A stretch of DNA of 47,554 nucleotides, counting the filler, from Jimgerdemannia flammicorona (Eukaryota), in assembly GCA_003990765.1 (NCBI GenBank). It is 2 parts of 2 records of this genome, joined end to end, with 100 filler letters (N's around TTAATTAATTAA, not from the genome) between each part and the next. Parts side by side here need not be neighbours in the genome. Positions count along the whole stretch, not along the records: positions 1 to 23,728 come from RBNJ01001072.1; 1 more part is not named here. One strand, 5' to 3'. The notes below the pieces were generated by a model. That model saw only the letters and a program-made list of their open reading frames with translations, was not told the origin of the DNA and did no database searches. Below, piece by piece: positions 9,521-29,288 of the stretch. A program made the translations under genes and the position numbers. Position 1 is the stretch's first letter. Each line of letters starts with the position of its first letter.

Positions 9521-11028
9521 TGTAACAAACCAAACATACTACCCAAATTATAACTTAGTCAGATGATATGAACAATTAGCATACTTAACCAAATGATGTG
9601 GGCTCCCAGTATAATATCCAGTATATTATAGTTACTCATGCTGTCACACTCATAATTAGCCAGATATGCCAGATAGGGTCTGTTTACCTGTATAGACTCT
9701 GTATACTATACAGACTCTATATACTCTATAGGTCCTATACACTATATAGACTCTGTATACCTGCTATAAGTAGCAGATCTATAGTTAGCCACATAGTAAC
9801 CAGATAGCAACCAACTTGTATAAATTACCCCAGAGATAAGAGTGAATAAACCTCAGTCCAAAATATAAACCAAAGAAGTCTCTAAAGATTGAGCATTGGT
9901 CCCCTTTTCACTCCAGTCTACTTTCCAATACAAAGCTTGAAGATTTTGCCACCAAGTTCAAGTGAAGAACTTCACCACCTTTTGAAGAGAAACCTGTCAC
10001 TTAAGAAATAAGCTGCACTATTGGTTTGCTTGTCAGATAAGCCTGAAGTTTGCCACTAAGTTCAAGAAAGAACTTTGCCACTATTTCTAAGTTATTCAAT
10101 GTATTCCCAGAAAGCTGCCTTGTTTAAGCCAGTTTCTGATGCAACTTCACAGTGAGCCATTTGTGCAAACAAAGCCAGTCTTTGATGCAACTTTGCCAAG
10201 AGACCCTTTCTAAGAAGCTGCCAGCAGTATTCTCAGTTATTCGAATTATTCACACCATCTGAGTTATTTCTCAGAAGCCCGCTAATTTAGGAGAATCTAC
10301 ATCATCTACCACTTCTAAGTTATCTGCATTCCCAGAATCTGTGCCATCATATTCCCAGAAGAGCCCACCAATTCAGGAAGAATCTGCACCATCTGAGTAG
10401 TATTCCTAGTTGAAACCGCCAATCTAGGAAGAATTCATGACATCTGAGTTATTCATTATTCTCAGTAAGCCTGAGAAGAACCTGCCACCAGTATAATTCC
10501 CAGTAAACCATCCCAGGAAGAACCCACACCATCCTCTATTCCCAGTGAGCCAAATCGAGTTATCTGCTAGAAATCACATACTTTTGGAAATCATCATGCT
10601 ATATGGAAATCATCACACAGAGATTGCCATCACCCAAGAAGGAAAACCACTAAATTGACAGACCATCACATATAAGGAACCCACACTACACAAAGATTGT
10701 TACACTATACAAGATCACTATACTCAGAAATCACATACTTTTGAAGATCATTACCCAAGAAGGAAACCACTCACACTACATATGAAATTCTACCAATTCC
10801 CAGTTGATCCAAGAAGGAAAGATACAAATTACCACTACACCCAGAGAACTATTCCAATAAGGAAATTGCTCACAGATATCTAGCTTTGACTATTATACCA
10901 CTAAATATCAAGGACCTCAGAAATCTTAGAACATTTTGTTGCTTTTTGACAAAGTAACTGAGGGCTCAAGCCAAACTACATCAACCCCCAACCTTGTGAT
11001 TTGCCTCCATTGAGCCAGGCATGTTACA
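9521..11028 (+). repeat. 5' LTR (~1.5 kb)
   Basis: TGTAACA...TGTTACA. TATAAA ~9818 and AATAAA ~9845. From ~9655 onward it is homologous to 18690-19901. Confidence 0.85.
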
Positions 11029-11030
11029 TT

Positions 11031-11048
11031 TGAGGGCTCAACTGGGAA
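11031..11048 (+). promoter_or_regulatory. Primer-binding site, tRNA-Pro-like (decayed)
   Basis: TGAGGGCTCAACTGGGAA, 2 nt after the LTR, versus the known tRNA-Pro PBS TGGGGGCTCGTCCGGGAT. Three of the five differences are G->A/C->T. Confidence 0.6.
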
Positions 11049-11063
11049 GATTTCAAAATCAAC

Positions 11064-12650
11064 ATGACTTTTCAGCTCACAGAACCCACAGTCAAACTGG
11101 ATACATTTGATACAACACCAATCTCTGCCACCACAGGAGAACTAGTTATTACTAGCATCTGGACAGAAAGAGAAGTAATCACCTCAAGACTCACCAACTA
11201 CCCAGCATCAGAAGGATTCCAACCAGAAGGCAGTATAGCCCAAAACTCTTGACCAGATCAACCAGACAATACAGGTGGCCCTGTTGGAGATTTTGAAGAA
11301 CTTGTACAAGAACTAGAAGATCTTATTACACAAGCCCGAGATCTTACAGCCAGATACCCCATACCAGTTCCATCAATCTCATCAATAGAACCTTTACCAC
11401 AAGCCCTTGCAGAGTTAGAAGTAGCTCCTACAAGAATACCTAGGCTCATTCCACTTCATCCAAGGTCCAGAACACCATCCTCAGGATACCCAGGCACCCC
11501 CATCTCTAGTGACAGCTCAGAAAGCGATTCAGAATCAGAATTCAGACCAGAACCAGAATCAGAAGAAAGTGATGATGAAATGGCCACCTCATAGCCAACC
11601 TTTGCAGAATACTCAGAGGAAGACCCCAGGGAATTCCTTGATGGAATTGAAGAAATTGCAGCCCTGAGGAATCTCTCAGATGAAAGAAAAATTGCCATCT
11701 ACAAGGCTCAGCTCAGAGAACCAGCTAGAGGAATTTTCCACCAAACAGCAAATGACCCAAATTCAGAACTGGCGAGACAGATACAAGCAGCAATGTCTTA
11801 TGAGCTAAAATATGTGGCCATGGTCCACTGGCTCATTGGAAAGTATGCAGGAAATGAAACCTGCCACAAGGCTCAAGAATCCATCATGGGGATGAAGATG
11901 AATCTTGGAGAATTACCCAGAGTCTTCTTCATAAGAATCCAGAAGAGAATGTATGCAGCTGGGTTCAATGCCACCAACCAGGACATCATAGGTCCAATGA
12001 CCTTCATGAACAGAATTCCCCCAAACATTGCTCAGCATGTCTGCACTCTAGTCATCAGAAGGTCTGAAGAGCAAGTAGATATAGCTCAAGGATTCTTCAA
12101 TATCAGACAAGAAACTACCTGGAGTGATTATGACAAGAAAGAAGATAAAGAAGACATCTTGGTCAAAGCCCTACAAGGACTCCTTCAAGAACAAGAAAGA
12201 TCTGAAGAAAGAAGGCCAGTCAAAGAAGGAAAGAAGAACAGAAGCAAAATCCAAGACCTCAGCTCTAAGTTGGACCGATTGGTTGGACAGATTGAAAAAC
12301 TCACCACATGTGAAAATCAGAGCTACCAAGACAACAGAGGATACCCACCACAGAGGAGCCAAGGTTATCCACCAAGAGATAACAGGAATTACCAGTAAGA
12401 AGAAAGAAGATACTCTGTCTGAGATAGAGCCCAAGTCCAATGCTTCTACTGTGGACAATTCAGATACTATGCCACTGAATGTGACAACAAAAGAAGTGAC
12501 TGAAGGGACTCAGAACTACCAAACCAAAGGAATGACACTCAGTATAAGAAGACTGAAGCCCATCCTGTTGAAGATTTCGAGGAAGTAAGTAACAGTGAAG
12601 ACTACAGTGACCTAGACTTATACCCTACCAAGATTACCACCTGAAAAACA
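11064..12650 (+). pseudogene. gag: Gypsy gag with CCHC zinc knuckle (disrupted)
   Basis: Capsid-like PTFAEYSEEDPREFLDGIEE. VQCFYCGQFRYYATEC at ~12435-12482 is CX2CX4HX4C with H->Y. Confidence 0.8.
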
Positions 12651-13079
12651 GTCTACCCAGCAGAGAAAAGGAAGAGACCTGTAGGAAGACCATCCAGGAA
12701 TATCAGCAGAAGAATCATCCAAGAGGTAGACAAAGAACATGAAGAGGAACAAGTAGAAATACCTCCCCAGACTCCTTCACCTTTTGTCTCTGAGACAAAT
12801 GAGCTGTCACCAGAAGATGAAGAAATGGAACAAGAAGAATGGAAACCTGCTGCCCCAAAGCCCAAGAAGAAGTACACCCCAAAGACCATGCCCAGAGACA
12901 TCTACAATGAAGCCTGGCAGAAGATTCAAGAAGTCAAGATGGAAGTCCCTCTCCTGCAGTTCCTGCAACTGACACCAGCTGGAGTCTGAAATAAATTGCT
13001 GAGAACAACCAGGTCTAGCACTGGCCAAGTTCTAATCCCACAGCAAGAACTAGTTCCCATCTCTGTCCAAGCAGCTGAA

Positions 13080-13450
13080 AGACATTTCAGCACCTACATA
13101 TATGGAGATATTGGAGGACAAAAGGCAAAGATCCTTATAGACACAGGAGCAGCTGCCTGTGTCATTGCCAAATGATTTCTGGACACCCTCCAATAGCCCA
13201 TTGATGGACCATCCAACCTCAGTATCATAGTAGCAGATGGAGCCCAAACTCAACCCCTTGGAGAAGTACAAAATATCACCATCTCTCTTAGACACATTCA
13301 GTTCTCCATCCTGAAAGCTATTGTCACTGAAGCTGTCACCTATGACATGATTCTTGGCACCAACTGGATGAAGGAAATGAATGAAGTTGTTGACATTGGT
13401 CAACAGGTACTCAAGTTTGACTATCAAGGCAAAAAGTATAGAGTTAAGGT
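13080..13450 (+). pseudogene. Retropepsin aspartic protease domain
   Basis: KILIDTGAAACVI (~13128-13167) and MILGTNWM. Confidence 0.9.
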
Positions 13451-14754
13451 GACCAGCTATGAGCAATCGAAGAAGAAGAAGAAGGTCATTATTCAGGAGG
13501 AATATATCAGTAGTGAAGAATCCACCACAGAAGAAGAGAAAGAATCTGAAGATGGAAATGATCCCAGACTCAATCCCTAAATTAATCTGGTGAATGACAG
13601 ACCAGAAGACAATGTGTGGGCTAAGAACACCATCCCTATTACCATTGGAGCCATTGTAGGAGAAATCAAAGGATGCCATACCTGCCTCAAGAGATAATAG
13701 TGTCCCAAGCATTCCTCCAAGATCATGGGAATAAGTAAATCGCCTGGCACAGCCTGCCCAGAGTGCAGAAGGAAGAAGAAGAAATACAGACATATTCCAG
13801 AAACACCTGCAGCCAAAGCTGTAGAAGTGCAAGAAATATGGAGACAAGAATTATCTGAAGAAGAAGAAGTTCCTGACCAAGAAGTTCTTGAACAAGAAGC
13901 ACCCAAAAAGGAAGAAGTCCCTGAACTCATTCCCTGGGATGACCCTTGCTGGACACCTCCTGAAGACAATGACCCTTGGAATATGGAAGAAGGACTCAGT
14001 ATAATCACCATTATCTCCAAGAAAGAAACTAACCAAGAAAAGGCTTTTTGGCTAGGAAGATGTCCACACCAAATGGTCTTCCACTCTCCCTGAAACTACT
14101 GCTATCAGTGCCATCTACTAGACCAACAGAAAAGACAGAGACCCCAGAGACCAGAACCTCCAAACATAGTTGCACAGTCAACTACCTTCCAAGAAGTTAC
14201 CACTAAGTTGCAAAGCTGATTCAGAGAACAAGACCTCTTCATCTGGACAGAAGTATACCCCTTGTCTACTCTTCTACCAACTTATGACCAAGATGGGTAC
14301 CAATTCCCAAGACAACAAGAGATCAACAACCAGGAACATTATTTCTGAGCAATGGAATATTGCAACCATAGAAGACACCCAGACTGCTGAGACTGCAGGC
14401 ATCAGAAGATCCATCTCAGTCATGATGTTGCAGTCCATACTTTGAAGAGAGGAGATAACCGAAACCATATCCAAAAAAGCCAGACCAAAAAGCCAGGAAG
14501 AAGGACCCTCAAGATCTACAATTTAGGAGAAGACATCCTAGCTCTCATCAGACATGCAACCCACCAAGAATGGATAGAAGATGCCACCAACTTCATAGAA
14601 ACCCTAGACCCTACAGGAAGAAGAGGAATCAACTATCTCTGAGATCCTTCTACTGGAGCCAGATGGCCACACCTCAACCTTAGAGCTTGGAGGCTCTTTG
14701 CTAGTAGAGCTTTAGCCTCAGGTCAGCCTGAACTCAGCAAGGATATTGCCCAGT

Positions 14755-15152
14755 ATGTCCTGCTACATCCCAAGGCCAAACCCCCAATCAAAGCACACCC
14801 AGAAGATATAGGATATGATCTTCACAGTCTAGAGGATGAATCCATCAAGCCTGGAAAATCATTCATGATCAGAACTGAACTAGTCATGCAGCTACCTCAA
14901 GGAACTTACATATAATTGATCTCAAGGTCTGGACTTGCCAGACAAGGAATAACCATAGAAGGAGGAACCATTGACCCAGGATATACAGGTGAAATCAAGG
15001 TCATCCTACACAATAGCAGCACAGAGTGGCACTGAATTATTAGAGGACAGAAGATTGCCCAAGCAGTCTTCATGAAGGTCAAGACCCCACAATTACAAGA
15101 AGTCTCCAAACTAACTAAAGGAACAAGACAAGCCAAAGGATTTGAGAGCTCA
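14755..15152 (+). pseudogene. dut: dUTPase domain within Gypsy pol (two in-frame stops)
   Basis: All five trimeric dUTPase motifs are in order: IGYDL, SRSGLA, GGTIDPGYTGEIKV, QKIAQ, TRQAKGFESS. Confidence 0.92.
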
Positions 15153-15559
15153 GAAAAGAAGGAAGTACATCTCCTTCAAGTCAGCCACCTCAAGAGAAAT
15201 ATCTCCCAGCAAGTGTACTACCAACCAGTCAAACTGCACAAGAATCTCATCCTGGAGCCTGGAGAGCAAAGCACCTTCAAAATCTTTGTACCACTGACCC
15301 CAGAAATCTCTTCTTTGAACCCAATGAAGATATCCCACACCTGGACATAGAAGGACACACATTTCCTGACAATATGAATCCAGTACACTCCTGAGCAACC
15401 AACCAAAGTTGGGCGATCATCATCTTGCCAAAAGGAACCATCATAGGACACCTGGTGCCTTTTCTCAGCCGAACTCATAGGGAAGTTTATGAACTAAACT
15501 TGTTGGGAAATGGCAAAAGGTCTCAGAAGAAAGAAAAGGCCCCTCTGTGACCCAAGAGA

Positions 15560-16976
15560 CAGTGAAGCCTTCTACTAACATTGGAGAAGAATTGATATCT
15601 CAACAACAGCAACAACTAGTAGAACTCCTCAACAAATATCAAGATATCTTCACTACTGATTATGGAAATCTGCCATATAACCTATCATATCACTATAGCA
15701 TAAATACAGAAAATGCAACACCCATCTGGCAGAAACCCTATAGAATACCCCATCACTTAAAAACATTCAAAAAGGAGCACATTCAAGAACTCTTAGACAA
15801 TGGAGTCATCTGACCATCTACCAGCCCTTGGGCCAGCCCTATACTTATTGTGGCAAAGAAAGGAGGATGGAGACTCTGTGTAGATTACAGGAAATTCAAT
15901 TTAGTCACTGAAAAGGATGCCTATCCTTTGCCCAGAATTGATGACCTTTTGGATCAGTTATAAGATGCCAGATACTTCAGCAGTATGGACCTTTTTGCAG
16001 GATTCCATAAGATCTCTATGAACTCCAAGGACATTCAAAAGACAGTCTTTCTTGCTCTAGGAAAACTGTTCAAATATCTCTGAATACCCTTTGGACTTTG
16101 CAATACACCCCCCACCTTTCAGAGGATGATGAATTCAGTTTATGTCCCCTTGATCCACCACTGCCTGATTGTATACATGGATGATTCCAATGTCTATTCA
16201 GCAAATTTTGAAGAACACCTACACTACCTAGAGGAATTCTTCAAGCTCACCTGAAAAAACCACTTAAGACTGAATGCAAAGAAATGTTACTTTGGGAAAC
16301 AGAAACTTGAATTTCTTGGATTCATAGTTTCAAAAGAAGGAACCCATGTAGACCCAAAGAAAACTGAAAAGATCAACATTGGCCAGTATCCAAGACCTCA
16401 AAGAAAACATTATCATTCCTGATACTGGTATCCTACTACAGAAGGTTTATCAAGGACTTCACCCAAATTGCTGCCCTAATTCAGATCCTTCTCAAGAAAG
16501 GAGTGTCATTTAAATAGACAGAATCACAAGAAACAGCCTTCAAAGAACTCAAGAACTGCATGACTACAGCACCAATCCTTGTGTGCCCCAATCTACAGAA
16601 GCCATTCATCTTGTATACAGATGCTTCCAAAGATGGCCTAGGAGCAGTTCTAGCCCAAGAAGGACCTGACCAACAACACTATGGGATAGCTTATGCAAGC
16701 CGAGCTACCAATCAGCAGCAGATGAACTATGGCAGCATCAAACTAGAATGTCTTGCAGTCATATGGGTGGTCACCCTGTTTAAGTATTACCTTATTGGAA
16801 AAAGGTTCACCCTGATCACAGACCATGCAGTCCTCAAATGGCTATTCAACTACAAGGAACTCACCAGAATCCTAGCCTGCTGGATCCTTATTCTTCAGAA
16901 TTACAAAATCACCATCATCCACAAAGTAGGGAAAGCCAACAACAATGTTGATGTACTTTTCTGCCAGCCCCAATGA
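15560..16976 (+). pseudogene. pol: Gypsy reverse transcriptase + RNase H
   Basis: [51 protein letters not shown] (~16173), FILYTDASKDGLGAVLAQ, FTLITDHAVLKWL. Confidence 0.95.
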
Positions 16977-16989
16977 ATCAGAAGAAGGG

Positions 16990-18053
16990 TGTCCCAAGAA
17001 ACTATACTCTAAAGGAAGCTCCTCAGACCATCAAGGCACAAGAAGATCTCATCTGAAAAGAACATCAGAAAGCCCACCAGAGACAGGCAAATATAGAAGA
17101 GAAGCTGCAAACAATACACCAACATTGGCTCAACCTCAGAACACAAGTCCAGGACATACTCAAGAAATGTGACACCTGCCAGAAGTACCAAGGAAGAAGG
17201 AATTATCAAGCACCACTGTAACCAATTACACCACCAGACAACATCTTTCAGAGATGGGGAGTAGATATAATCAGACCCCTACCAGTTACACCAAAAAGGA
17301 ACAAATACATCCTTATATTTGTAGAATATCTGATAAAGTGGTCCAAGGCTTTTCCAATGGAAATTGCAGATGTCTTAACCATTGTAGACTTTCTCCATAG
17401 ACTCACACTCAGATATGGACCCCCAGAAGAACTCATCTCTGACCAAGGCATAGAATTCATCAATAACATAATCACAAGTTATGCCTGAATTCATAAGATC
17501 CACCTCAAATGGACTACATCATACCACCCTCAGACCAATGGCATAATAGAAAGAATGAACCAGATCATCAAGAAAGGACTTGCCTGAGGTAATCCTACAT
17601 ATCAATTGGGACCTCTGCTTACCTGAGATCCTATGAGAAATCCAGAACACCCCTGCTGCCTCCACCAAACAAAAGCCATTCGAAATGATGTTTGCCAAGA
17701 AAACCAGAACTGCTGACCATGAGAATCTCGGAGACCTCCTTAAGAAGGCAGAACAGGTATGTAATTAAGCCCAAGGTCAGATTATCAAATCCCAAGAAAG
17801 ATAAAAAAAGTATTATAATCAGAAACAGAAGGATCAGGAGATTAAGATTGGAGATCAAGTACTAGTTTGGAGAAGCATGATTGAAACAAATTTTTCTGCC
17901 AAATTAAAACCCAAATGGGAAGGACCTTATCTTGTATACAATATCAGAGGAACTAGTATCTATTTAAGAAGTATGGATGGATGAACCCTCAGGACACCAG
18001 TATATATCAACTGCCTCAAGATATACCTCTCTCATCATGAACCAGACAATTGA
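16990..18053 (+). pseudogene. Gypsy integrase (HHCC remnant, DDE core, GPY/F)
   Basis: CDTCQK, FQRWGVDII, LISDQGIEF, YHPQTNGIIERMNQ, KLKPKWEGPYLV. Confidence 0.92.
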
Positions 18054-18585
18054 CCAGTACCTCCAGACCCTTGTTCTGAGTTTATTCCAATCACTTCCAG
18101 TTTGCCTTCCACAATTCCAATAAGCCAATGGAAACCCCCTTTGGTAAATCCAGACCCATCAAGAGAACTTCACTTTGGCCAGACATTTACTACAAGTACA
18201 TCAGCTACAGGTCTACTATGCAATTGGAGAACAGTTACAGAACCTTCCAGTAGCAGACCTGACCTACATCAGAAACTCCACTGGCCTCATCTGGAAAAAT
18301 ACCACTGCTGCAGACAGATTGTACACAATCTACAAATGAAATGTCCCAGCCTTGACACAAGCACAATTCCTTTTGAATGATATTCATAATATGAATCCTG
18401 CTACTTACTGGAGCATCATCAATAATATTGAAATCCTGTTTCCAGAAGAAGAAGAAGAACCTAGTGGAGTGACTCTGACCCCAATGAAGATATTGGTTCA
18501 AATATTGATGCTGAAGATGCTTATGCATATTGGAATGATGACTAAAGGATTGTCTGAGGGCAGACCATCCTTTAGTAGAGACTGA
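18037..18585 (+). pseudogene. Extra ORF3 between integrase and 3' LTR, unknown function
   Basis: A single frame of ~182 codons from ATG 18037 to TGA abutting the LTR. Its three internal stops (TAA, TAA, TGA) all revert by C->T. Similar to the ORF at 24150-24794. Confidence 0.7.
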
Positions 18586-19901
18586 TGTGATGAGCAACAG
18601 AATTGTACTACTGAAATCATAAATTAGCCACATACTATATCTAGTACACTAAGTAACCAAGACTGCTTTACTATGCCAACCTGTATATTTAGCCAGAGAT
18701 ATCAGAAACAGTGTGTTTACCTATACCCTCAAGGTATACTATACCCTTAAGAAACACTTGCCATAGTTAGCAATCTATAGTTAGCAACATAGTAACCCAT
18801 AGCAATCACAACTGTATAAATTACCCCAGAGATAAGAGTGAATAAACCTCAGTCCAAATTGAAGTACAAACCAAAGAAGCCTCTAAAGGTTGAGCATTGG
18901 TCCCCTTATTCTCACTCCAGTCTACTTTCTGATACAAAGCTGATTTTGCCACCAAGTTTGAGTAAAGAACTTTGCCACCTTTGGAATTATTGGTATGCTT
19001 GCCAGACTAAGCCTGAAGAATCCGAGTTTGCTGCCCAAGTTTGAGGAAGAACTTCACTACCATTTGAGTAATCCACCACTTAAGAAATAAGCTGCCATTT
19101 TCAAGTTATCTGCATTCCCAGAGAGCCTAAGAGAAAGCCACCTTGCTCAAGCCAGTTTCTGATGCAACTTTGCAGTAAATCTGTTTGTTCAAATGAAGCC
19201 AGTCTTTGATACAACTTTGCTAAGAGACTCTTTCCCAAAAGCCACCCATTATATTTCCCAGTTGAAGCCGCCATTTTCAAGAAGTCTGCCAATTTAAAAG
19301 AATCTACAATATCTGAGTTATCTAAATTATCTGCACCACCCAAGTTATTATTTCCAGAAGCCTGCCAATTCAGGAAGAATCTGCAACATCCAAGTTATCT
19401 GAGTTATCCATGACATCTGAGTTATTCATTTGTTCCTAGTAAAGAATCCACCATCAGTATAATTCTCAGTAAGCTGCCATTTCAGAAGAATCCATATCCC
19501 AAATTGAGTTATCTGCCAAATTACATAAGGAGAACTACCAAATTACCAGATTGTCATGTATAAGAAACCCATCATGCTATACAAGATCATCACCCAGAAT
19601 TTGCATAAGGAACCCACTGTGCCATACAGAGACCATTGTGCTACATATGAAATTCTACCAATTTCCAGTTGACCTAAGAAGGAAATCTATTTACACACAA
19701 ATTGCTGCTACATCTAAAGAACTATCTCAATAAGGAAATTGCTTGCAGATATCCAGCTTTGACTATTATACCACTAAACACCAAGGACCTCAAGAATCTT
19801 AGAACATTTTGTTGCTTTTTGACAAAGTAACTGGGGGCTCAAGTCAAACTACACCAACCCCCAACCTTGTAATTTGCCTCCATTGAGCCAGATATGTTAC
19901 A
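18586..19901 (+). repeat. 3' LTR (~1.3 kb)
   Basis: Starts TGTGATG after a GTCT-GAGGGC-AGAC hairpin and weak purine tract. Ends ...CATTGAGCCAGATATGTTACA like the 5' LTR. Confidence 0.8.
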
Positions 19902-19902
19902 A

Positions 19903-22890
19903 TAGTGCTCAATTTGAATCAAATCCAGATTTGATTTGTCACATAATGGTTTGACTCAAATCTCAAATCTAAAATAATCTGAATTAACTTAGATTAATCT
20001 GAATCACTTCATCTAAATTACTCAATCTAAACTACTTAATTCAAATTACTCAATCTGAACTACTTAATCTGAACTACTCAATCCAAACCACTCAATCCAA
20101 ATTACTCAATCTAAATCACTCAATCCAAGCCACTCAATCCAAATCACTCAATCCAAATCATTCAATCTGAATTCTTTAATCTGAATCATCTAATTTGAAT
20201 TATCTATATGACTTACAGTGATAGCCAAAAGTAAATTAATATTTAGTTTTTATAAATATTTAATTATATTATAATTCTAATATAAAATATTTTAAATTAG
20301 AATTTAACCATTAATAGACTAGTGTCTGAGTTTTGAATAGTATATTTTTATTTTATTTGGATAATTATGAATATTAATATAACTATTTTAAGTTAAATTA
20401 TTCATTGATATACTTTTGAATCTTTTTGGTATATATATAAACCTTTTTTTTTTTTTTTTAGCATATATATTTACATACTGTTAATATTCAAATTTTCATC
20501 ATTATTGTTTCAGACATTCTTTACAACTCTATGTAATATTAATTTAGTTCTATTGTTCTAATTTTCAGATTAGACTATAAATGTTTTTCTCAATAACTTA
20601 GTGAGTTTTCAGTTGATTTTGATGATCTTGATGTCTTTGAAAAATCATTCTTGAGAGCTTTTCAAAGATCCCAAGAATGTTAAATCAGAAGAAAATTCAC
20701 CAAGTTGTCAAGGAAATCATCTAACTCACTAATTCTGAAATGAATGTTTTTCTCAAAATCTCAGTGAATTTTCATTCAATTTTAATATTTATGATATCAT
20801 TGTGAAGCTCTCTATAATAGCTTTCCAATGGTATCAAGATCATCAAAATTAGATAAAATCTCACTAGTTGTTAAGGAAAACATTTGATAGTCTAATTGGT
20901 AAGATAAGTATCAGTATAGTAAAAAGAACTTTCAAAAGACAGATAAAGATAAGTATCAATATGGTAAAAAGAACTCTCAAAAGACAGATATATATATGAA
21001 AGTAAAAAAAACCTCAAGGCACAATACAAATTTCATTGAACTATCCATAATGGCCATAAATGAATATAGCACAACCCCAAAACTGAACTATATACTAGAA
21101 CTCTAAAATTCAATTGCTCAATAACTCAGTGAGATTTCATCTGATTTTCATGATCTTGGTGTCATTGGAAAGCTTTTATAGAGAGCTTCATAATGATATC
21201 ATAAACATTAAAATTGAGTGAAAATTCACTGAGATTTTGAGGGAAATGTTTATTTCAAAATTGGTGAGTTAGATATTTTCCTTGACAACTTGGTGAATTT
21301 TCTTCTGATTTTAACACTCTTGGTATCTTTGGAAAGCTCTCGAGAACGACTTTCCAATGACACCAAGATCATCAAAATCAACTGAAAATTCGTTAAGTTA
21401 TTGAGGCAAACATTTATGGTCTAATTTGGAAATTAGAACAATAGAACTAAATTGATATCATTCAAAAACACTGTAGAGTTGTAAAGAATGTCTGAAACAA
21501 TAATGGATATTGATAGTATGTAAAATGTATGTACTAAAAAAAACAAAAAAGATCAAAAGTATATCAATGGATAATTAACTTAAAATAGTTCTATTAATAT
21601 CTATAATTATCTAAATAAAATAAAACATATACTATTAAAAAGCTCAGTCACTAGTCTATTAATGGTTAATTCTGATTTAAAATGTTTTATATTAGAATTG
21701 TAATATAATTAAATATTAATAGAAACTAAACATTATTATAGTTTTGGCTATTACTGTATATACTAGATATAATTCATTATATATAATATATATATATGTA
21801 AACATATATATATAATTACATATATTCAAATATACAAACACATATATTAATAGATCAGTCTTCAATAGTTTATAGTACTGATGATGCTTCTAGTCAATAG
21901 TTCCATACTTTTTACATAATCCTCATTCTGAAATCTGGTAATATTGTGTTAAGACTGAAGATAATATTATTTGTAATTATTACAGGTAAAAAATTTAAAA
22001 AAAGAAGATATATTTATAATACAACTGATACTTTTATTAGATATATACATAATATTATTTCTACTAATCTCTTATACTATATAGCCAGAAGTTTAAAATA
22101 CTTAGTAGTTCAACTTCAAACATATACTAACATATAAGACAAACACTCTGACAAAATCAAAAAGAATATAGAAATAAATAAAATTGATATCCAAGCTGTG
22201 GTGGGGTACATTTATCTGATTGCTCAACTATTTCTATATCAATAATCCTATTTAATCAAAAAATATTTAGCCATATTCTTCAAAATTGACTCATTTACTA
22301 GATTATATATACAGACCAACTATTCACAATCATCAAGAGCAATTAATTGTATATTACAAGTATGATTTATATCTGCCAAGTTCCAATACTATTCACAAAG
22401 ATATTCTGGAAGTCTATAGGAAGGAGCATAATAATCTTCACTAAACACTTCAGATAAAATAAATAAATGAGAACAATACTGTGACTATTGTTAGCTAAAT
22501 TTTATATATATATAAAAAGAGCTCACCAATTTAATCTTACTTTCAATAAACAGAATTCAGCAGATAGAATTTTATTTATAATTGATCAATATATGGATAT
22601 CCTCTAATGTAATTTCATTTCTGGACATTACCAGTCATTGAATTAATCTCAATTGGTAACTTAAATCTCTTACTCTTGACTTTATCAAACTTGCTAATTT
22701 TTATTCTGGAGAAAATATCATATATATTTTTATTAGTTGTATTATAAAGAGAGAGACATTTTATTGAAGTTATATAGGTCATATATTTCATGCATTACAG
22801 ATGAATGATATAAAATTGATAGAATGGTTTAATTACATATTGACATATCAAGTTGCTATCCCAATACTCCTACTCAATGAGATATATATC
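19903..22890 (+). mobile_element. Heavily C->T-mutated copy of the hAT element seen at 1-793 (terminus, subterminal array, BED exon, transposase remnant), interrupted by a foldback element; right boundary approximate
   Basis: TAGTGCTC...AATTTGAATCAAATCCAGATTTGATTTGTCACA aligns with the reverse complement of 720-793. 21898-21990 aligns without gaps to the reverse complement of 121-213. Confidence 0.85.
20216..21756. mobile_element. Non-autonomous foldback/large MITE with ~650-bp terminal inverted repeats, Tc1/mariner-type ends
   Basis: TA|CAGTGATAGCCAAAA ... TTTTGGCTATTACTG|TA. 20216-~20870 is the reverse complement of ~21115-21756. Short non-coding spacer; TA TSD. Confidence 0.88.

Positions 22891-22892
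<2 letters not shown>

Positions 22893-22956
<64 letters not shown>
22893..22956 (+). repeat. Poly(A) run (~64 nt) at the hAT/Copia junction
   Basis: Homopolymer; no flanking TSD identified. Confidence 0.9.
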
Positions 22957-22958
<2 letters not shown>

Positions 22959-23728
22959 GTATTAAAATATAGACTAGAAATATACAAACTAACTAAGTAA
23001 ATTGATTATTAATCATAAAAACTACATATAAACTAAAGAAAAACTACTTATACCTACTTAGAGAATAAGAAATCTAGTGAAAATACAGGATATAGATCAA
23101 AGATATAGTAGAAATATTCATAATATCCACTCATAAAAATGAGAAATATGGTAAGAAAGCAAGATATAAATATAGATAATGCAAATATAGTAAGGGAGGC
23201 TTTTGAGGATCTGAAAAATATCCAGTAATTATTTGCTAGACTTTACTAAAACACTGGTGTAGAGAGTACATTATCTCATAATATTCAAAAAGAGTTTTAT
23301 TTCTTTAATATATTACTCAAACTTTGCCTTTAAAAGGGCTTTCATAAGTAAATCAGTGATTATGTACTCTGTGGGAATGTATTCCAAGTATATAGTACTA
23401 TTTTCTATACATTCGTATATAAAATAATATTGTATATTGATATGTTTTATTTTACTGTGATGTATTGGGTTCTTGGTAAATGTTATTCAATTGATTGTCT
23501 TGCTTAATTAGTGTAGAGTTCTTTTGAGTAAAGTCAAGCTCTTTTAATAGTTCATAGAGCCATATGTTTTTTTTGTTGCCATTTATAATGCTTGGTACTC
23601 TATCTATATTGATGATGTTGCTATGGAACACTGCTTATATATTTATCATAAGATAACTTCTTTGTCATTTTTGCCAATGTAGAGAAGGTACCTAGTTTGT
23701 AGATTGATAGTTATTGAGATCAGGGGGG
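22957..23728 (-). mobile_element. Ty1/Copia 3' end (RNase H remnant + probable 3' LTR), heavily mutated
   Basis: Minus-strand KQCSIATSS..EYQAL, WLYELLKEL, DNQ, KNPIHHSKIKHINIQYYFIYE and LEYIPTEYIITDLLMKAL are decayed Copia RNase H motifs (HHxRTKHIDIRYHF, ADxLTK). Confidence 0.85.
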
Positions 23729-23828
23729 NNNNNNNNNNNNNNNNNNNNNNNNNNNNNNNNNNNNNNNNNNNNTTAATTAATTAANNNNNNNNNNNNNNNN
23801 NNNNNNNNNNNNNNNNNNNNNNNNNNNN
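23729..23828. other. Assembly gap with artificial six-frame stop linker
   Basis: N44-TTAATTAATTAA-N44 (100 nt). Confidence 0.97.
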
Positions 23829-25276
23829 CATATGAGATGAGCAATGATGACCAACTGTGAGTCATTGTGACCACAGTACAAGCATCCTGAAGAATATAAA
23901 AGAAGGATCAAGGAACTGCAGTAGCAGCAACCAACAAGAACCACCAATCCCAAAATAGCTCAAAGACTTACCACAAATGAAATACCTGCTGCCCACCAAA
24001 CCTCAAGGTCAAGGAATCACCAAGATATCTTGGTCGAGAAAAGGATGTTCCAAGACATCAGAAGAGCCATAGGGACCTACTCAAGAAGGACTCTTAGTGT
24101 TAACCTGGGTACTGCAGACTCTTATTACTTCATTCTCTACTACTGTAAAATGGAAACAAGGATCACTATTGCTACCAAATGCCTTCAAATATAGCAGGAG
24201 TATAAAATAGGAAATCTCCTCTATCAGGAGTTCCCACAGGCCAGCACTCAAGAGCTATAAGATGCCACTCCTATGGATATATGCAAAACAAGGATAGCTA
24301 AGAAGATCCATCAGATCTTCAGGCATACACCATGGTCGATCCCCAACTTGAAGTATGTCAGAGTCTCAGACTTCAGAGATCTATCATCCCACCATATCAA
24401 TGCACTAGAAGCCAGGGTGGCTACAGAAATCCAGTCCACTATCACTCTCAACAGTGAAGAAGTAGAAGACTTCTGGCACTCTATTCTCTAGGACAACTCA
24501 GACCAATTTCTGTAAGGATTGATCTCAGTATTCCAAGGCCCAAGCATCCAGGTTAGACCTCCCCAAGACCTCACATTTATTCCCTATTTTGTGGAAGAGA
24601 ACCTCATAGACTGGAGAGCTCCAGATCTTGTTCCCAATTTCCCTACTGAACATGATGATGTCATCGGTAATGACATCATCCTACGTGACATATGCGAAAT
24701 GTGTGACCTACACGATGAGTTCATGGATCTCATCTCCTTCAGTGATGATGATGATGAGGATGAAGCTCCCATAGTCCTGAACTTTCTGCTCTAAGTTCTT
24801 TGTTATACTAAATAATACCAGTACTAGTATTCTCATGTAACACTGGATAATGTCAGCACTAGTATTCTAAGGTGATGCAAAATTGTTCCAGCAATGGCAT
24901 TTTGATGTTACACTAAATAATGCCAGTATCCTGAACCTGTACAACCATCAGTGCTAGCCCTGGAACTTAGTAGTTTCAGTTATTGGAATTTATATTTAGC
25001 TTTATATCTTAGCAACCATTGAATTATATTTTGTATAAATACTCCTCTTATTTCCTCTGAAATAAAGTCAGTTAAGTTTCGGTTTCACTTATATACACTT
25101 CCTTGTAAGCAATCTAAGAGATAACAAGATAGTTAAATATAAGAAGTTTGAGGACTATAAGACCTTGGGAAGGCACTCTAATAAGAACTTGCTTATAACA
25201 AACTTGAGTTAGTCTAAGAGATACACCTTGAAGAGAATCTGACATATTTGAAGAACTCAGTGACCACTACGTAACA
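23829..25276 (+). mobile_element. 3' end of a second LTR retrotransposon (probably Gypsy): accessory ORF and LTR ending ...CGTAACA
   Basis: Its ORF resembles ORF3 of the 9.5-19.9 kb element. TGTATAAAT...AATAAA at ~25032-25066 has the same spacing as in the first LTRs. Candidate LTR starts TGTTA at 24098, 24801 or 24907. Confidence 0.65.
24150..24794 (+). pseudogene. Accessory ORF3-like frame (~214 codons, internal stops), acidic C-terminus
   Basis: ATG 24150 is in frame with track ORFs 24273-24491 and 24519-24794. Motifs YKIGNLL...RIAKKIHQIFR...VSDFRDL. Confidence 0.6.
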
Positions 25277-26455
25277 ATATATATCTATTTTCTTAGAAAA
25301 GTATGGTAACAAATTGGACTTGCATATCTATATTTATTCTTATAAGTTTGAAGTATTAGTCTAACTAAAAAGTCCAGATATGTATCAGTAAATAGTTTTC
25401 TATAGTAACTATATATTAAAAATATTAAGCTTAAGTAGCTTAAAACTAATAAGTATAATTATAAAGTAAGCTACTATGGCTATACTTTTGTTTTCTAATA
25501 TTCTAGTTATAGTTATAGATTTCAGATCTAATATATTATTGTAATAATTATTCCTTTTAGATCAATCTATAGTTCTGAATCTATATCTTCTATTATAGAG
25601 AGATCTGAATAATTAGCTAGTTCTTCAGAGTTCATTTTGGATTTATATAACTAGTTGTAACTGATTTCTAAATTTATATAAGGTTTCTTAATAAAGCAAG
25701 ATATAACTTTATCACTACTATCAAATATAACAGTTCTAATTTCTTTAAAAAAAAGTAGCTTAAATCTGAAAGATTTTAGTAGGTCTAAAGTATACTTATA
25801 GATTTAAGTAGTTTTAAAGAGTTTCTAAAGAAAATATTCTGAGCTTTATTCAAGTAAAGAAAGAGGATATTTATATAAAATCTAAAAGAAAGACCAGGAA
25901 GAATTTTAGAAATAAAAAGAAAAGCCAAGAAAGTAGTTCTTAATAAAGATGATTAATAAGATTTTACAATATACTAAGATAAGATACTTAATATTAAGAA
26001 AAGACAAGAATATTCTGATAAAGTCTTAGTGCCAAGAAAGAATTTCTAAGTATTCAGGAGATGCTGAAACATTGTGGAATAGACAAGAAAAGATAAAAAA
26101 AGACTAGAGAAAAAATATGAAAATATACTATAAATAAGAAATTATTATAATGTATTTATTATAATAATAATTTATGTTATAAATATTTAGAATTAACATA
26201 TTAAGGAACTTTTGAAAATAGTATAATCAGATTACTATCAGTTCTTATATTATATATTTAAGATAAAATTATCAAAAAAATATATATTAATTTTAATAAG
26301 TTTATTATTTGATATATATTTCAATTTATATCATAAATTATATTATTTATGAGACTTAAAATCTGTTAATGTATTATAATAGCAATAAAATATTATATTG
26401 TGATAATATATACAAATACAAAATATTTTAAAATACCATTATTTTCTACTGCTAA
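25277..26455. repeat. Extremely AT/TpA-rich relic of an unidentifiable repeat
   Basis: Essentially CpG-free and TpA-rich, with an abrupt return of CpG at ~26458. Confidence 0.5.
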
Positions 26456-27121: not shown

Positions 27122-28534
27122 TCACTTTAAAAAGGTGAAGAACTCCTTAAGTGCACGAATCCCCGCTCTCCTTCGAGTCCGCTTCGGGGTCCCTATCGTA
27201 GTAGATAAGACCGGCTTGTCTTCTCCAGATGAATCTACATACTTCGGCACCGATTCCTCTCTCTGCCTTTTCCACGTGTTTCGTCGCACGTACTGAAACC
27301 CATTCAATTTGATCCATCTCTCCACAGCCAGCGCCAGATGGTCGGGAACTTCTATCTGCTCGAGATTTGGGCATTCACAAATGACCCAGACCACAAAAGT
27401 TTCGGCTAGATTGTAGCACCCGGAAAGCGACAGCGTCCGTAGCTCTGGCCAACCCCTGTGGACATACGAATTCAAATTGGTGATCCTCGTCAAGCACTGG
27501 CATTCTATGAAATCGATATGCTCGAGCTTGCGACCGTGCGCAAGCAAGGTCTCAACCAGTGTTCCGTCATGGACCCAGCTGATTCGCACCAAGCGGAGAC
27601 GTTTCAATTCCGTACAGCTGGACAGGAGGGAGTCCACGGCGCCGACGGTGACGGCCGTATAGTGTACCGCCCCCCCGTTGACGAGAGTGAAGGAGTTGAG
27701 CAGCGTGCACGAGGCCGCCAACGCATGGATGGTGCGGTCGAAGCAAGGTGATCTTCCGTGCATGTAGCAAAACTCGCGCAAGTTGGACCACGATGGCAGG
27801 ACCGTCGCCAGGCCGTTTTCGGGGTCATGGATGCGGATCATGTTCACGTCACGAATGCGCGAGCAACGGCGCAGGGCGTCTTGAGTCGCGTGGGTGATGG
27901 CATAATTTGTCAGGGTGAGGGATTCGAGAGTCGGACTGAGGATGGTTAGGAGGGTGTCAATGTGGGTGTGGTGCGCCGGGTGACTGCCGCCTCCGTTGAA
28001 GCTGAAGCGTCTGATTGGCGGCCAGATGGGTTGCAGGCGATTGAAGAGGTTGTTGAGGTGATCGAGGGGACAGGCACGAGCGGTTGCGAGATATGTGATG
28101 TCAATTTCGAGGTCCGTGAGGTTGCGTGGGCGGAGTTTAAAGAACGTTTCGAGGGACTCAGTCATGGATTCGACCCGGTTGCGACTCATGCAGCGGACGT
28201 CGATTTTCACTTGTTCGATGAGTCCAGGGGGATCAAAGCCATTGTGCCGAAACTCGACGAGTAGATTTATGTACCGTTTCATTTCAGCGACGTCGAAACG
28301 GTTATCGTAGACGAGCGTTCGGAACAAGTCAAGTTGGATCCTGTTGTAAAGGAAAGGGCTGGCTTCTTCGTACCAGCTTCTGCAAACCATCGAGCTGGCG
28401 ATAAGATCCCAGGGCGCTTCCGAAAACGTGGTGGCATGGTGTGAGGGAACTAGGTATAAAAACACCAAGTGTAGAATGTCCGGGACCAAAAGTGGTGTAC
28501 GGTAGCGGGGATTTCTGAGTATCCTAGTGGGCAT
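27122..28534 (-). CDS. F-box / leucine-rich repeat (RNI-like) protein, 470 aa, intronless
   Basis: N-terminal LVPDILHLVFLYL...SSMVCRSWYEEA F-box-like motif. Cys-containing LRRs (CTELKRLRL, LRTLSLSGCYNL, CPNLEQIEV). Confidence 0.85.
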   Translation of the reverse strand: MPTRILRNPRYRTPLLVPDILHLVFLYLVPSHHATTFSEAPWDLIASSMVCRSWYEEASPFLYNRIQLDLFRTLVYDNRFDVAEMKRYINLLVEFRHNGFDPPGLIEQVKIDVRCMSRNRVESMTESLETFFKLRPRNLTDLEIDITYLATARACPLDHLNNLFNRLQPIWPPIRRFSFNGGGSHPAHHTHIDTLLTILSPTLESLTLTNYAITHATQDALRRCSRIRDVNMIRIHDPENGLATVLPSWSNLREFCYMHGRSPCFDRTIHALAASCTLLNSFTLVNGGAVHYTAVTVGAVDSLLSSCTELKRLRLVRISWVHDGTLVETLLAHGRKLEHIDFIECQCLTRITNLNSYVHRGWPELRTLSLSGCYNLAETFVVWVICECPNLEQIEVPDHLALAVERWIKLNGFQYVRRNTWKRQREESVPKYVDSSGEDKPVLSTTIGTPKRTRRRAGIRALKEFFTFLK

Positions 28535-29288
28535 GTCGACGTATGGTAATAATGGAGTGTTAACACCAATTTTCTATTGAAGGACGCTTGCAAGAGAAGT
28601 CGATCTCAGATGATTGGAACGGTAGGAAGTCAATATTTATTCCGAGTCATCAAACAGGTGGTAAACTCCGGAGACGGCGAAACATGTAACAAACAAAGAG
28701 TCAGCATCTCACCTATTGTCGTGCGTACAACCGCTTTTGTACGAATGCACCTATAGCCGGACTGCCTTTCCGAGGCGAGGCATGTTGAGCCATTCCCCAA
28801 AATCATTGTCACCAGGGTATTATTCAGCGTTGTTTGCTGACGTATGGTATGAAAAACAATGTCAACACTCGTCAGCTCATTCTCGGCACACAGTATTATT
28901 AAACAAAGAAGAGTGTTGCAAAAAAGCGGGCATGTTTTTGTTGAAGCGTAGCAGACTATCGCCAACGCCTTTAAACAATTGCCGCAACAAAGGACGGAAA
29001 GGACAAATAGAACGATTTGACCAGCAAGGATTTGAGTTCTCGGCGGTCATGATGGGTGGGTTATATTTTAGGGAGGACGCAGATTTGTTTGAAGCACATT
29101 GATTAGAAACGAGATTAATTTGTGAATTTCATCCAACCACCGGTACAAAACCTGATTGCACCCCTGAATGAAAGAGCTGGGAAAAGATCGGATTAGTCCA
29201 ACATGCGAGTGTACTTATTGTTTTTTCGACGAATAAAAACATTACACGCTCCGGAGAGTGAGACTAGTGCCTCGGCTTCACGGATACG

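Follow-up and report, generated by a model that had tools for sequence, protein, structure and literature searches.

CpG erasure in repeats and directional C-to-T decay of an old transposon-like copy in a Jimgerdemannia genome segment

Introduction

Two copies of one transposon-like element, a young copy of ordinary composition and an AT-rich old copy, are found in a 47,554-nucleotide stretch of fungal DNA (filler included), which is referred to here as the window. The question raised by this locus is what converted C to T in the old copy, and whether the process is repeat-induced point mutation (RIP) or something like it, as an initial annotation of the window had proposed.

Host and organization of the window

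The host had been guessed to be Endogonales-like, and the guess was right. The open reading frame at 27125-28573 on the minus strand matches an NCBI protein that carries the name Jimgerdemannia flammicorona, with 99% identity across 97% of the frame, and from this match the source is taken to be J. flammicorona itself or a nearly identical relative (Endogonales, Mucoromycotina). An Atlas look-alike search did not discriminate between phyla, with clusters from Mucoromycota, Basidiomycota and Ascomycota equal at a score of 0.96. A Pezizomycotina host with ordinary RIP, which the initial annotation had set as the case against its own proposal, is not what was found; the host belongs to the Endogonales instead. 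Three features define the general layout:

27125..28573, minus strand: F-box-like/LRR gene in CpG-normal DNA, the basis of the host identification
23729..23828, no strand: assembly gap in the AT island, made of two N runs around the TTAATTAATTAA linker; contiguity across it is scaffolding only
9001-9499 and 19903-26440: AT-rich island, GC 0.22-0.27, except for a piece of GC 0.42 at 23829-25000

The unique intergenic DNA of the window has a GC of about 0.44 and a CpG observed/expected ratio (o/e) of about 1.1-1.2. A Pfam search for coding relics in the AT island, using six read-through frames of 21990-26491 with stops as X, gave no families in five of the six frames; the AP3D1 match in the sixth (E=0.04) lies on a poly-A tract, is at chance level and was rejected. 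The L1-type LINEs of the initial annotation were not confirmed, as Pfam on 93 ORFs from the GC-skewed and CpG-void blocks gave a single match, an RVT_1 relic.

The element and its copies

The element and the repeats that surround it are arranged as follows:

1..793, minus strand: young copy, GC 0.45, CpG o/e 1.29, running off the left window edge
357..689, no strand: tandem array within the young copy, subterminal, built of a 14-nt unit x24 with one CpG per unit
9085..9222, plus strand: third copy of the terminus (TAGTACTCTGAA...), AT-rich and more diverged, just upstream of the Gypsy element
9500..19901, plus strand: Ty3/Gypsy-type LTR retrotransposon with RNase H, protease-like and dUTPase-like domains; its 5' limit is approximate
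19903..20195, plus strand: old copy, terminal part, GC about 0.28-0.30, aligning to young 793/777-480
20196..21776, no strand: inverted-repeat insertion of 1.58 kb, AT-rich (GC 0.14-0.32), splitting the old copy
21777..22096, plus strand: old copy, interior part, aligning to young 357-1 and including 21898-21990

Judged by these alignments, 19903-22096 and 1-793 hold copies of one DNA-transposon-like element, the former old and the latter young and inverted. The stretch 19903-21990 had been taken for a single continuous old copy; it is in fact the old end, followed by the inverted-repeat insertion at 20196-21776 and then by the old interior. The young copy lacks anything corresponding to this insertion, whose arms (20196-20878 and 21776-21114) are 82.7% identical by blastn. 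The terminal part of the old copy adjoins the 3' LTR end of the Gypsy element (..TGTTACA at 19901); in the young copy, the terminus reaches 793 and reads TAGTGCTC... on the minus strand. The third copy has the orientation of the old copy, and the young copy is inverted relative to the old. In the old copy the tandem array spans 19996-20173 with 12.7 units, and the consensus has TpA in place of CpG.

Elements of the hAT type are characterized by a transposase with a dimerisation domain and a BED finger, an 8-bp target duplication and short YARNG-type terminal inverted repeats. The TAGTG... terminus, common to the three copies and accompanied by subterminal short repeats, fits the YARNG motif, and the element is a candidate hAT element, with a single end of each copy in view. 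Pfam detected no transposase domain in the window part of either the young or the old copy, the six read-through frames of 21990-26491 included. Scans of metagenome contigs for further element termini gave 0 loci, both with the exact terminus and with Y/R at CpG positions, and the divergence of the third copy at 9085 is too high for polarising the changes by three-way alignment. In a purine/pyrimidine self-search of the window, the young and old copies were the only hidden hypermutated pair.

Mutation spectrum of the old copy

The alignment on which the initial annotation was built can be reproduced in full. Positions 21898-21990 match the reverse complement of 121-213 without gaps (73/93 identical, 20 differences). 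C>T or G>A in the AT-rich copy accounts for 17 of these differences, nine of them in CpA/TpG, three in CpG and five in other contexts. From young to old, the changes are ten C>T, seven G>A and one each of A>G, T>C and A>T. This stretch lies within a blastn match of 116-297 to 21995-21824 (76% over 182, E=1.5e-33), and a second match joins 484-777 to 20188-19909 (E=3.5e-35). Identity in the second segment rises from 72% in four letters to 96.3% (301 columns) when a purine/pyrimidine alphabet is used, in which transitions do not show. The homology extends to window base 1 in the young copy and 22096 in the old, and the match is not a chance one. The reported change of a CA-rich tract into TATATA is also present, at about 270-345 in the young copy and about 21845-21780 in the old; this microsatellite-like stretch is excluded from the strict counts.

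The 282 strict columns contain 47 GC>AT transitions, 4 AT>GC transitions and 4 transversions (Ts:Tv 51:4). Changes in the old copy fall on 47 of the 115 G:C sites and on 4 of the 167 A:T sites (p=3e-17), a per-site GC>AT to AT>GC ratio of about 17. About 40% of the G:C pairs are now A:T, and the GC of the aligned parts goes from 0.40-0.42 in the young copy to 0.24-0.25 in the old. Every aligned CpG is lost (29/29), with 12 now TG, 11 CA and 6 TA, and without strand bias. Outside CpG, the strict set has 22/47 CpA sites mutated against 10/42 for CpT and CpC together (5/23 and 5/19; Fisher p=0.029), and the per-site fraction in CpG (15/26) is as high as that in CpA. Such a CpA excess, about 2-fold in this set with p of about 0.03, is modest. 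The extended alignment gives larger counts (CpA 63/113, CpT+CpC 34/103), which come from a transition-blind alignment and a tandem array where homogenisation of units may have spread one change. When the non-CpG sites of the extended alignment are divided by their 5' base, the mutated fractions are 36/67 for A, 18/40 for C, 16/30 for G and 27/79 for T; among the CpG trinucleotides they are 17/30 for TCG, 11/21 for CCG, 8/8 for GCG and 2/5 for ACG. Strand-coordinated runs of changes, a test for single-strand patches, do not go beyond composition (P=0.41 and 0.56).

The old copy also has too few transversions for its load of transitions. Its overall Ts:Tv of 51:4 compares with 2.3 in seven control repeat pairs (range 1.3-4.3; p=9e-5), and the non-CpG ratio of 36:4 compares with 520:224 in the same control pairs (p=0.006) and with 91:38 in the Gypsy LTR pair (p=0.012). 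The 4 transversions in 282 columns (95% interval roughly 0.4-3.6%) are set against 10 expected at the rate of the LTR pair (P=0.029). The evidence for hypermutation comes from a single copy pair at one locus, with about 280-620 aligned bases.

CpG erasure across the repeat blocks

The loss of CpG reaches far beyond the old copy. Two domains are nearly or entirely without CpG:

786..26440, no strand: CpG-void repeat domain 1, 58 CpG against 974 expected, o/e 0.06; it holds the AT island
32370..38520, no strand: CpG-void repeat domain 2, 0 CpG against 190 expected over 32481-38520, o/e 0.00

The last CpG before domain 2 is at 32369 and the next one after it is at 38521. Along the window, the CpG o/e of successive domains is 1.29, 0.06, 1.08, 0.00 and 1.11, where the normal domains (1.29, 1.08 and 1.11) are the young copy and the genes, and the voids are repeat blocks. 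The borders are sharp, within less than 200 bp; on the young side, the CpGs stop at 784, and the terminus of the element is at 793. In the void block at 1-20 kb, CpA and TpG have an o/e of 1.1-1.8, an excess expected of the products of CpG decay. In the void at 33-38 kb, TpG/CpA is only 0.65-1.07 without any excess, so CpG was either lost there very long ago or was in part already missing in the ancestor of the family. The initial annotation had treated CpG loss as secondary, while CpG eradication in all repeat blocks is the dominant process of the window, and the old copy is its extreme case.

The Gypsy element provides an internal control for the mutation spectrum, since it is CpG-void and yet has a GC of 0.41. 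Its LTRs (9759-11041 and 18756-19901) are 84.4% identical, with 18 CA/TG double mismatches between them. In the last 150 columns of the LTR next to the old copy, C>T is not in excess (5 versus 7). Other copies of the Gypsy family, represented by contig ends from runs X1 and X2, keep CpGs at places that lack them in the window copy, so the CpG void is derived; stretches not covered by X1 or X2 are uninformative. Context was compared in four control repeat pairs, and none of them has a CpA preference (odds ratios 0.83-1.49). When the repeats of the window are compared with other copies in X1, transitions number 147 and 152 in the two directions, with no net shift towards AT, and repeat blocks with a transversion divergence of 7.9-9.2% still have a GC of 0.44-0.51. 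Because repeats can be CpG-void and normal in GC without CpA preference or AT shift, the non-CG component is not general and must be local or episodic, and this is not predicted by a passive methylation model alone. A selected sample of 40 listed out of 626 differences at positions 1-20000 includes 26 with A/T in the window and G/C in the other copy, of which 11 are TpA in the window against about 20% expected (p=0.012). The root metatranscriptomes X3 and X4 matched 1-20000 with 3 and 1 short contigs, all below 95% likeness, and gave no evidence on habitat or expression.

Tests for canonical RIP

Among repeat copies in the window, dominance of C:G>T:A holds for the young/old pair only. The composite RIP index is above zero in 3 of 48 1-kb windows, all three in CpG-void DNA. 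Canonical RIP leaves TpA/ApT high and (CpA+TpG)/(ApC+GpT) low in its products. The classical thresholds of the RIP indices are 0.89 and 1.03, and both are reached in 2 of the 48. Depletion of CpA/TpG is absent from the AT island at 20-24 kb, where (CA+TG)/(AC+GT) is 1.28-1.47. Mutation has not struck all the copies present together: the young copy is spared (CpG o/e 1.29, GC 0.45) with two decayed copies of its terminus no more than 22 kb away, although timing could explain this. With the young copy intact, the control pairs free of CpA bias and the RIP indices mostly negative, a repeat-induced (homology-triggered) defence is not borne out. What survives of the claim of RIP-like CpA/TpG and CpG hypermutation is the directional C>T load, the complete CpG loss and the roughly 2-fold CpA excess; canonical RIP is not supported.

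In the literature, RID-1 is described as confined to Pezizomycotina by PMC9963178, which also reports DIM-2-like homologs in Endogonales and Glomeromycota and DNMT1 in some other early-diverging fungi. J. flammicorona is entered as 'no_rip' in a kingdom-wide k-mer screen, with n_noncoding 23, n_repeat 0 and n_both 0 (S14 Table, PMC12543289). This entry is weak evidence, since Leptosphaeria maculans is given the same pattern (45/0/0) in that table. The design of the screen is blind to the contrast between repeats and non-coding DNA in a genome that is mostly repeats. The survey text places RIP-like signatures only in Ascomycota classes (PMC12543289), and in the literature searched there was no description of CpG depletion or RIP-like mutation in Endogonales.

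Proposed mechanism: methylation followed by deamination

The best reading of these data, with a probability of about 0.5, is that the repeats are targeted by cytosine methylation, in CG and in some non-CG contexts, and that deamination follows; the mechanism is inferred from the mutation pattern. In this scheme, 5-methylcytosine would mark the repeats, with a DNMT1-class enzyme maintaining CG methylation, and some repeats would also receive non-CG methylation from a DIM-2-like enzyme, whose link to Endogonales is one sentence in PMC9963178. Deamination of 5mC, either spontaneous or promoted by an enzyme as in Zymoseptoria, would convert CpG to TpG/CpA and then to TpA, and in heavily marked relics the same process may strike CpA above CpT or CpC. 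Such a process would be independent of RID and would not require the sensing of pairwise homology. In Phycomyces, also in the Mucoromycotina, DNMT1 occurs with a DIM-2-type enzyme and CG methylation exceeds non-CG methylation, as reported in PMC7862722. In Zymoseptoria tritici, Dim2 is reported to drive C>T at CA in methylated transposable elements during mitosis, with more than 98% of the C>T changes at CA and CG sites spared (PMC8016269). That Dim2 spares CG there, while CG is eradicated here, counts against the methylation-deamination reading. The data point to mutation of repeats linked to methylation, in a lineage of fungi from which such a process has not been described.

Alternative explanations

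A RID-independent, homology-triggered hypermutation resembling RIP, perhaps acting through the DIM-2/heterochromatin route, is an unlikely alternative. On this view the AT-rich island was made in a single episode or a few, which hit the old copy together with neighbouring repeats such as the third copy at 9085 and the internal tandem or inverted repeats, and the young copy came later or escaped. Linked duplications are preferred targets of RIP, and two termini of the same orientation stood close together before the Gypsy insertion. The mutational load, with 41% of the G:C pairs converted but 4 transversions where 10 were expected, is far above the transversion 'clock', and the preference for CpA over CpT/CpC, the progress of 6 of the 29 CpGs to TpA, the sharp edge of the AT island against an LTR without excess C>T, the three positive RIP-index windows in CpG-void DNA and the TpA tally (11/26 in the selected sample of 40 among 626 differences, p=0.012) all fit such an episode. 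It is opposed by the unmutated state of the young copy despite at least three family copies within 22 kb, by the lack of strand-coordinated runs beyond composition and of CpA/TpG depletion at 20-24 kb, and by CpG being struck at least as hard as CpA, unlike in Neurospora-type RIP. Both arms of the inverted repeat are AT-rich and differ by only 7.9% transitions (51/647), so their AT-richness is mostly shared and not independently acquired. The report of RID only from Pezizomycotina (PMC9963178) and, as weak evidence, the 'no_rip' entry of the species (PMC12543289) add to this side.

Plain age, in which a much older copy drifts to a low equilibrium GC under ordinary GC>AT bias and CpG decay, is quite improbable, even though GC>AT mutation bias is general in eukaryotes, the transversion count is small (4, with its interval of roughly 0.4-3.6%) and the island holds other AT-rich DNA without a recognisable coding relic. 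The sharp edge at 19901/19903 would also be explained if the Gypsy element had entered an island that was already AT-rich. The usual GC>AT bias in fungi is 2-3-fold, however, far below the per-site ratio of about 17 in the old copy, and the Ts:Tv of 51:4 is well away from the 2.3 of the seven control pairs (p=9e-5). Since unique intergenic DNA has a GC of about 0.44, with a CpG o/e of about 1.1-1.2, a GC of 24% is not the general equilibrium, and blocks with 7.9-9.2% transversion divergence keep a GC of 0.44-0.51. It is very improbable that the element was edited, independently of methylation, by a single-strand DNA cytidine deaminase of AID/APOBEC-like type, for instance while it transposed or replicated. 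Families of this kind have been reported from fungi and the changes are almost purely C>T/G>A, but neither a 5'-T or 5'-C preference nor strand-coordinated clusters are seen, and CpG voids with domain borders would be left unexplained.

Comparison with known systems

The present case shares features with several known systems and differs from each. Like canonical RIP in Neurospora and other Pezizomycotina, it has near-exclusive C:G>T:A change in a repeated element, CpA favoured among non-CpG sites and an AT-rich, CpG-free relic. It differs from canonical RIP in that the host is in Mucoromycotina while RID is found only in Pezizomycotina, CpG is struck at least as much as CpA, for which the preference is just about 2-fold, neither the young copy nor the other repeats are affected, and the RIP indices are mostly negative. 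The 'mitotic RIP' described for Z. tritici (PMC8016269) is similar in its repeat-restricted C>T, its CpA preference and its not needing RID; Dim2 mutagenesis there is linked to methylation, and a DIM-2-like gene is reported in Endogonales (PMC9963178). Here, unlike in the Z. tritici account (PMC8016269), all CpGs are destroyed and CpT/CpC are mutated at 22-26%, and the comparison is between sequences, while that work reports mutation-accumulation experiments.

Decay of 5mCpG, as in the DNMT1/DNMT5 systems of Basidiomycota and in vertebrates, is likewise confined to repeats with CpG-normal genes, and the TpG/CpA excess in most void blocks and the sharp domain borders fit it. What differs is the extreme depletion here, with an o/e of 0.06 across 25.6 kb and of 0.00 across 6 kb, and the additional non-CpG load of one relic. 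PMC13297926 sums up early-diverging fungi as relying mainly on 6mA and not on 5mC. The TpCpG hypermutation of Pucciniomycotina, as presented in PMC3318451, is also a RIP-like C>T change on CpG-containing sites outside Pezizomycotina; it occurs in another phylum, and its TpCpG specificity is absent here (TCG 17/30, GCG 8/8). Zoophthora radicans (Entomophthorales; PMC10515909) offers a RIP-like hint in composition in a non-Dikarya fungus with a genome inflated by transposable elements. The hint in that report comes from dinucleotide indices only, whereas here most such indices are negative and an alignment of copies at one locus supplies the evidence.

Biological implications

A broader proposal, which is doubtful at present, is that Endogonales, taken to lack RID, carry out a RIP-like, repeat-directed C>T hypermutation at CpG and CpA, probably by way of a DIM-2-type methyltransferase and heterochromatin, that erases CpG from all repeats and turns some relics into AT-rich islands. 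If true, it would be the first case outside Dikarya to be backed by an alignment, and methylation-coupled mutagenesis of repeats would predate the origin of RID. In this species, entered as 'no_rip', the window has complete, domain-sharp erasure of CpG in its repeats and one relic whose deamination-type load is far above its transversion age. Whether RIP-like processes existed before RID is a question that is directly testable with assemblies already public. The marking of repeats by 5mC in Endogonales has probably been strong and long-lasting, and methylation-linked mutagenesis may help explain how a genome of 230-240 Mb, more than 77% of it repeats, tolerates its transposons.

Element copies and their neighbours

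The element occurs as a GC-richer young copy, an AT-rich old copy and a third copy of the terminus, arranged as follows.

1–793 (−): young copy; terminus reads TAGTGCTC...; continues beyond the window edge
357–689: subterminal tandem array of the young copy; 24 units of 14 nt, one CpG per unit
9085–9222: third copy of the terminus, AT-rich and more diverged, immediately upstream of a Ty3/Gypsy-type element
19903: start of the old copy, with the terminus of the young copy, two bases past the Gypsy 3′ LTR end (..TGTTACA, 19901)
20196–21776: AT-rich inverted repeat of 1.58 kb that splits the old copy
21777–22096: resumed part of the old copy

Since the third terminus copy and the old copy flank one Gypsy, the two decayed copies were neighbours in AT-rich DNA before its insertion. 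The terminal motif fits the YARNG rule of hAT termini; hAT identity is a guess that goes as far as this motif, because no transposase domain was found in the six read-through frames of 21990–26491 and each copy has a single end in view within the window.

The inverted repeat is a near-palindrome with arms of about 680 bp (82.7% identity by blastn, 89% by gapped local alignment) and internal repeats of about 45 and 150 nt; candidates for its identity are a foldback-type element and a local inverted duplication. In the Gypsy, a weak dUTPase match (15036–15347 (+); PF00692, with an E of 7.6e-5 that is marginally above the curated cut-off) lies between the protease-like and RNase H regions. The AT island around the old copy is interrupted at 23729–23828 by two N runs either side of a TTAATTAATTAA linker, and because of this join the adjacency of 20–23.7 kb and 23.8–26.4 kb is not sequence-proven. 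Within the island, 23829–25000 (GC 0.42, CpG o/e 0.12) has one frame almost open for about 900 nt; its ORFs 23925–24191, 24261–24488 and 24516–24791 (+) gave no Pfam match, and it probably derives from a decayed, unclassified element. Two uninterrupted poly(A) stretches, each about 65 nt or longer, lie at 22892–22956 in the island and at 38416–38485, where the second CpG-void block ends on its 3′ side; they are possibly retroelement tails.

The Endogonales-like host proposed in the initial annotation is borne out by the F-box-like ORF 27125–28573 (−), which over 97% of its length matches an NCBI protein carrying the name Jimgerdemannia flammicorona at 99% identity. The genome is given as about 231–240 Mb with more than 77% repeats (PMC10386755, PMC7928374; S1–S2 Tables of PMC12543289).

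Mutation spectrum of the old copy

In this Endogonales genome the old copy is a genuine transposon relic with hypermutation of the deamination type. RIP-like (repeat-induced point mutation) change had been proposed from 93 nt: 21898–21990 aligns ungapped to the reverse complement of 121–213, with 73/93 positions identical and the 20 differences originally counted. From young to old, C>T accounts for 10 of them and G>A for 7, with A>G, T>C and A>T occurring once each, and the recount of contexts (9 CpA/TpG, 3 CpG, 5 other) reproduces the first figures exactly. When the window is compared with itself, the stretch falls within two matches, 116–297 / 21995–21824 (E=1.5e-33) and 484–777 / 20188–19909 (E=3.5e-35). 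The second match is 72% identical in four letters but reaches 96.3%, over 301 columns, in a purine/pyrimidine-collapsed alphabet where transitions are invisible; young/old homology then extends as far as window base 1 / 22096.

A strict set of four-letter alignments (116–297 and 664–777, 282 columns) leaves out the tandem array and a microsatellite-like tract. It holds 47 GC>AT transitions, 4 AT>GC transitions and 4 transversions from young to old, so that 47/115 G:C sites are changed against 4/167 A:T sites (p=3e-17); conversion of this one relic was directional and of deamination type. The Ts:Tv ratio is 51:4, against 520:224 pooled over seven other repeat pairs of the window (individually 1.3–4.3; p=9e-5). 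Outside CpG it is 36:4 (p=0.006 against the seven pairs, p=0.012 against the LTR pair), this non-CpG component being evidenced at one locus. All 29 young-copy CpGs aligned to the old copy are destroyed, giving 12 TG, 11 CA and 6 TA. Per-site rates in the strict set are 15/26 for CpG, 22/47 for CpA, 5/23 for CpT and 5/19 for CpC, a modest CpA preference over CpT+CpC (odds ratio 2.8, p=0.029). The longer transition-blind alignment gives 63/113 vs 34/103 (p=0.001), counts that weigh less because they include the (CA)n/(TA)n tract and the tandem array, whose units may have passed a single change among themselves. This longer alignment shows no TpCpG preference.

CpG-void repeats and CpG-normal genes

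The setting of the relic is a striking mosaic of CpG-normal genes and CpG-void repeats, blocks nearly without CpG, and these voids are a larger signal than the hypermutation of the old copy. CpG loss is complete and found in repeats only.

CpG census of the window (o/e, observed/expected)
Positions; observed; expected; o/e
1–785; 40; 31; 1.29
786–26440; 58; 974; 0.06
26441–32480; 386; 356; 1.08
32481–38520; 0; 190; 0.00
38521–47554; 599; 540; 1.11

Domain borders are sharp on a 200-bp scale, and the first matches the end of the young element (final CpG at 784, terminus at 793). CpA and TpG are in excess in the 1–20 kb void (o/e 1.1–1.8) and not in the 33–38 kb void (0.65–1.07). With contigs of runs X1 and X2 aligned to 1–20000 at 80% likeness, family copies elsewhere retain CpGs at positions that are CpG-less in the window copies, and transitions in the two directions, window vs other copies, number 147 vs 152 (X1) and 147 vs 208 (X2). 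These near-equal counts and retained CpGs indicate that the GC-normal repeats of the window are typical of their families and that the void is derived. Contig depth is very uneven, reaching several hundred (e.g. 2002–3335 and 19344–20000), and joints that jump about 9 kb between LTRs (9583>18768, 9824>18822) are consistent with solo-LTR or other family copies elsewhere in the genome.

By classical RIP indices most of the sequence is negative, with the composite above 0 in 3/48 1-kb windows (25–26, 36–37 and 37–38 kb) and (CA+TG)/(AC+GT) at 1.28–1.47 in the AT island at 20–24 kb. Dinucleotide indices are clearly RIP-like in 25001–26440 alone (GC 0.22; at 25001–26000 TA/AT 1.32, (CA+TG)/(AC+GT) 0.69, composite +0.63), a stretch that lies just upstream of CpG-normal genic DNA and has no homolog to align within the window.

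The voids are also skewed. GC skew is mostly −0.23 to −0.50 in 1001–9000 (+0.23 at 7001–8000) and, with opposite sign, +0.41 to +0.51 in 33001–38000; the blocks share inverted homology (7968–8521 / 33426–32873 and 3562–3793 / 36316–36085). Their 93 ORFs yield a single Pfam domain, an RVT_1 relic at 3226–3441 (−), whose strand, taken with the skew, would make the sense strand rich in G and poor in C.

Mechanism and rival explanations

The main rival to a methylation-linked origin is a homology-triggered RIP-like process. Deamination-type load and modest CpA preference speak for it and sustain that part of the initial interpretation, but the relic does not pass several of the tests that define canonical RIP. 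The Gypsy LTR pair (1068 columns, 84.4% identity) has symmetric transitions, 65 vs 64, with 38 transversions, and after removal of 18 CA/TG double mismatches, marks of ancestral CpG, its CpA odds ratio is 1.03, no preference; three further repeat pairs give 0.83–1.49. The LTR end adjoining the old copy has no C>T excess (5 vs 7 over the last 150 columns). The arms of the inverted repeat (GC 0.22 and 0.25) differ by 51 transitions in 647 columns, so their AT-richness is mainly shared, which counts against independent hypermutation of the whole island. A true RID-independent RIP-like system behind the relic is unlikely, at perhaps a quarter of the chances or somewhat less.

An APOBEC-like deaminase, which would also give C>T changes, is less likely; the transition-blind alignment shows no 5′-T or 5′-C preference, and changes in the young/old pair are not clustered by strand above base-composition expectation. 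Plain drift is less likely too. Transversions stand at 1.4% in the young/old pair vs 3.6% in the LTR pair (P=0.029 for so few), by which small counts the former is no older, and repeat pairs at 7.9–9.2% transversions retain GC 0.44–0.51; age alone, as far as small transversion counts go, does not explain the AT-rich state.

CpG decay in the two LTRs (9759–11041 and 18756–19901) has opposite strand bias: 15 of the 18 double mismatches are CA in the 5′ LTR and TG in the 3′ LTR, and 3 are the other way round (binomial p=0.0075). Transitions outside CpG lack this asymmetry (CT 31, TC 29, GA 15, AG 16).

Under methylation-linked mutation, repeats of J. flammicorona would be cytosine-methylated, now or over a long past. 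CG maintenance methylation followed by 5mC deamination would have erased CpG, and non-CG methylation, or a reaction promoted by an enzyme, may have added CpA-biased C>T changes in some relics. Published work makes this plausible. RID-1 is described as reported from Pezizomycotina only, and DIM-2-like homologs as present in Endogonales and Glomeromycota (PMC9963178). Phycomyces is described with DNMT1, a DIM-2-type enzyme and CG-biased methylation (PMC7862722). In Zymoseptoria tritici, functional Dim2 is reported to increase C>T at CA within methylated TEs during mitosis, an effect termed by the authors a mitotic version of RIP (PMC8016269).

A k-mer screen of 1,239 genomes reports RIP-like signatures in four ascomycete classes only (PMC12543289). 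Its S14 Table scores J. flammicorona 'no_rip': enrichment is listed for 23 k-mers in its non-coding DNA and for 0 in its repeats, and the screen gives TATA as 4.0-fold enriched. Leptosphaeria maculans is likewise 'non-coding only' there (45/0/0), so in our reading this category is compatible with past hypermutation in repeat-dominated genomes. Indices are reported to hint at RIP in Zoophthora (PMC10515909). Our literature search, which did not extend to the Endogonales genome paper, turned up no publication that describes either CpG depletion or RIP-like mutation for Endogonales. The old copy is best filed as a case of methylation-linked repeat mutation in a lineage new for it.
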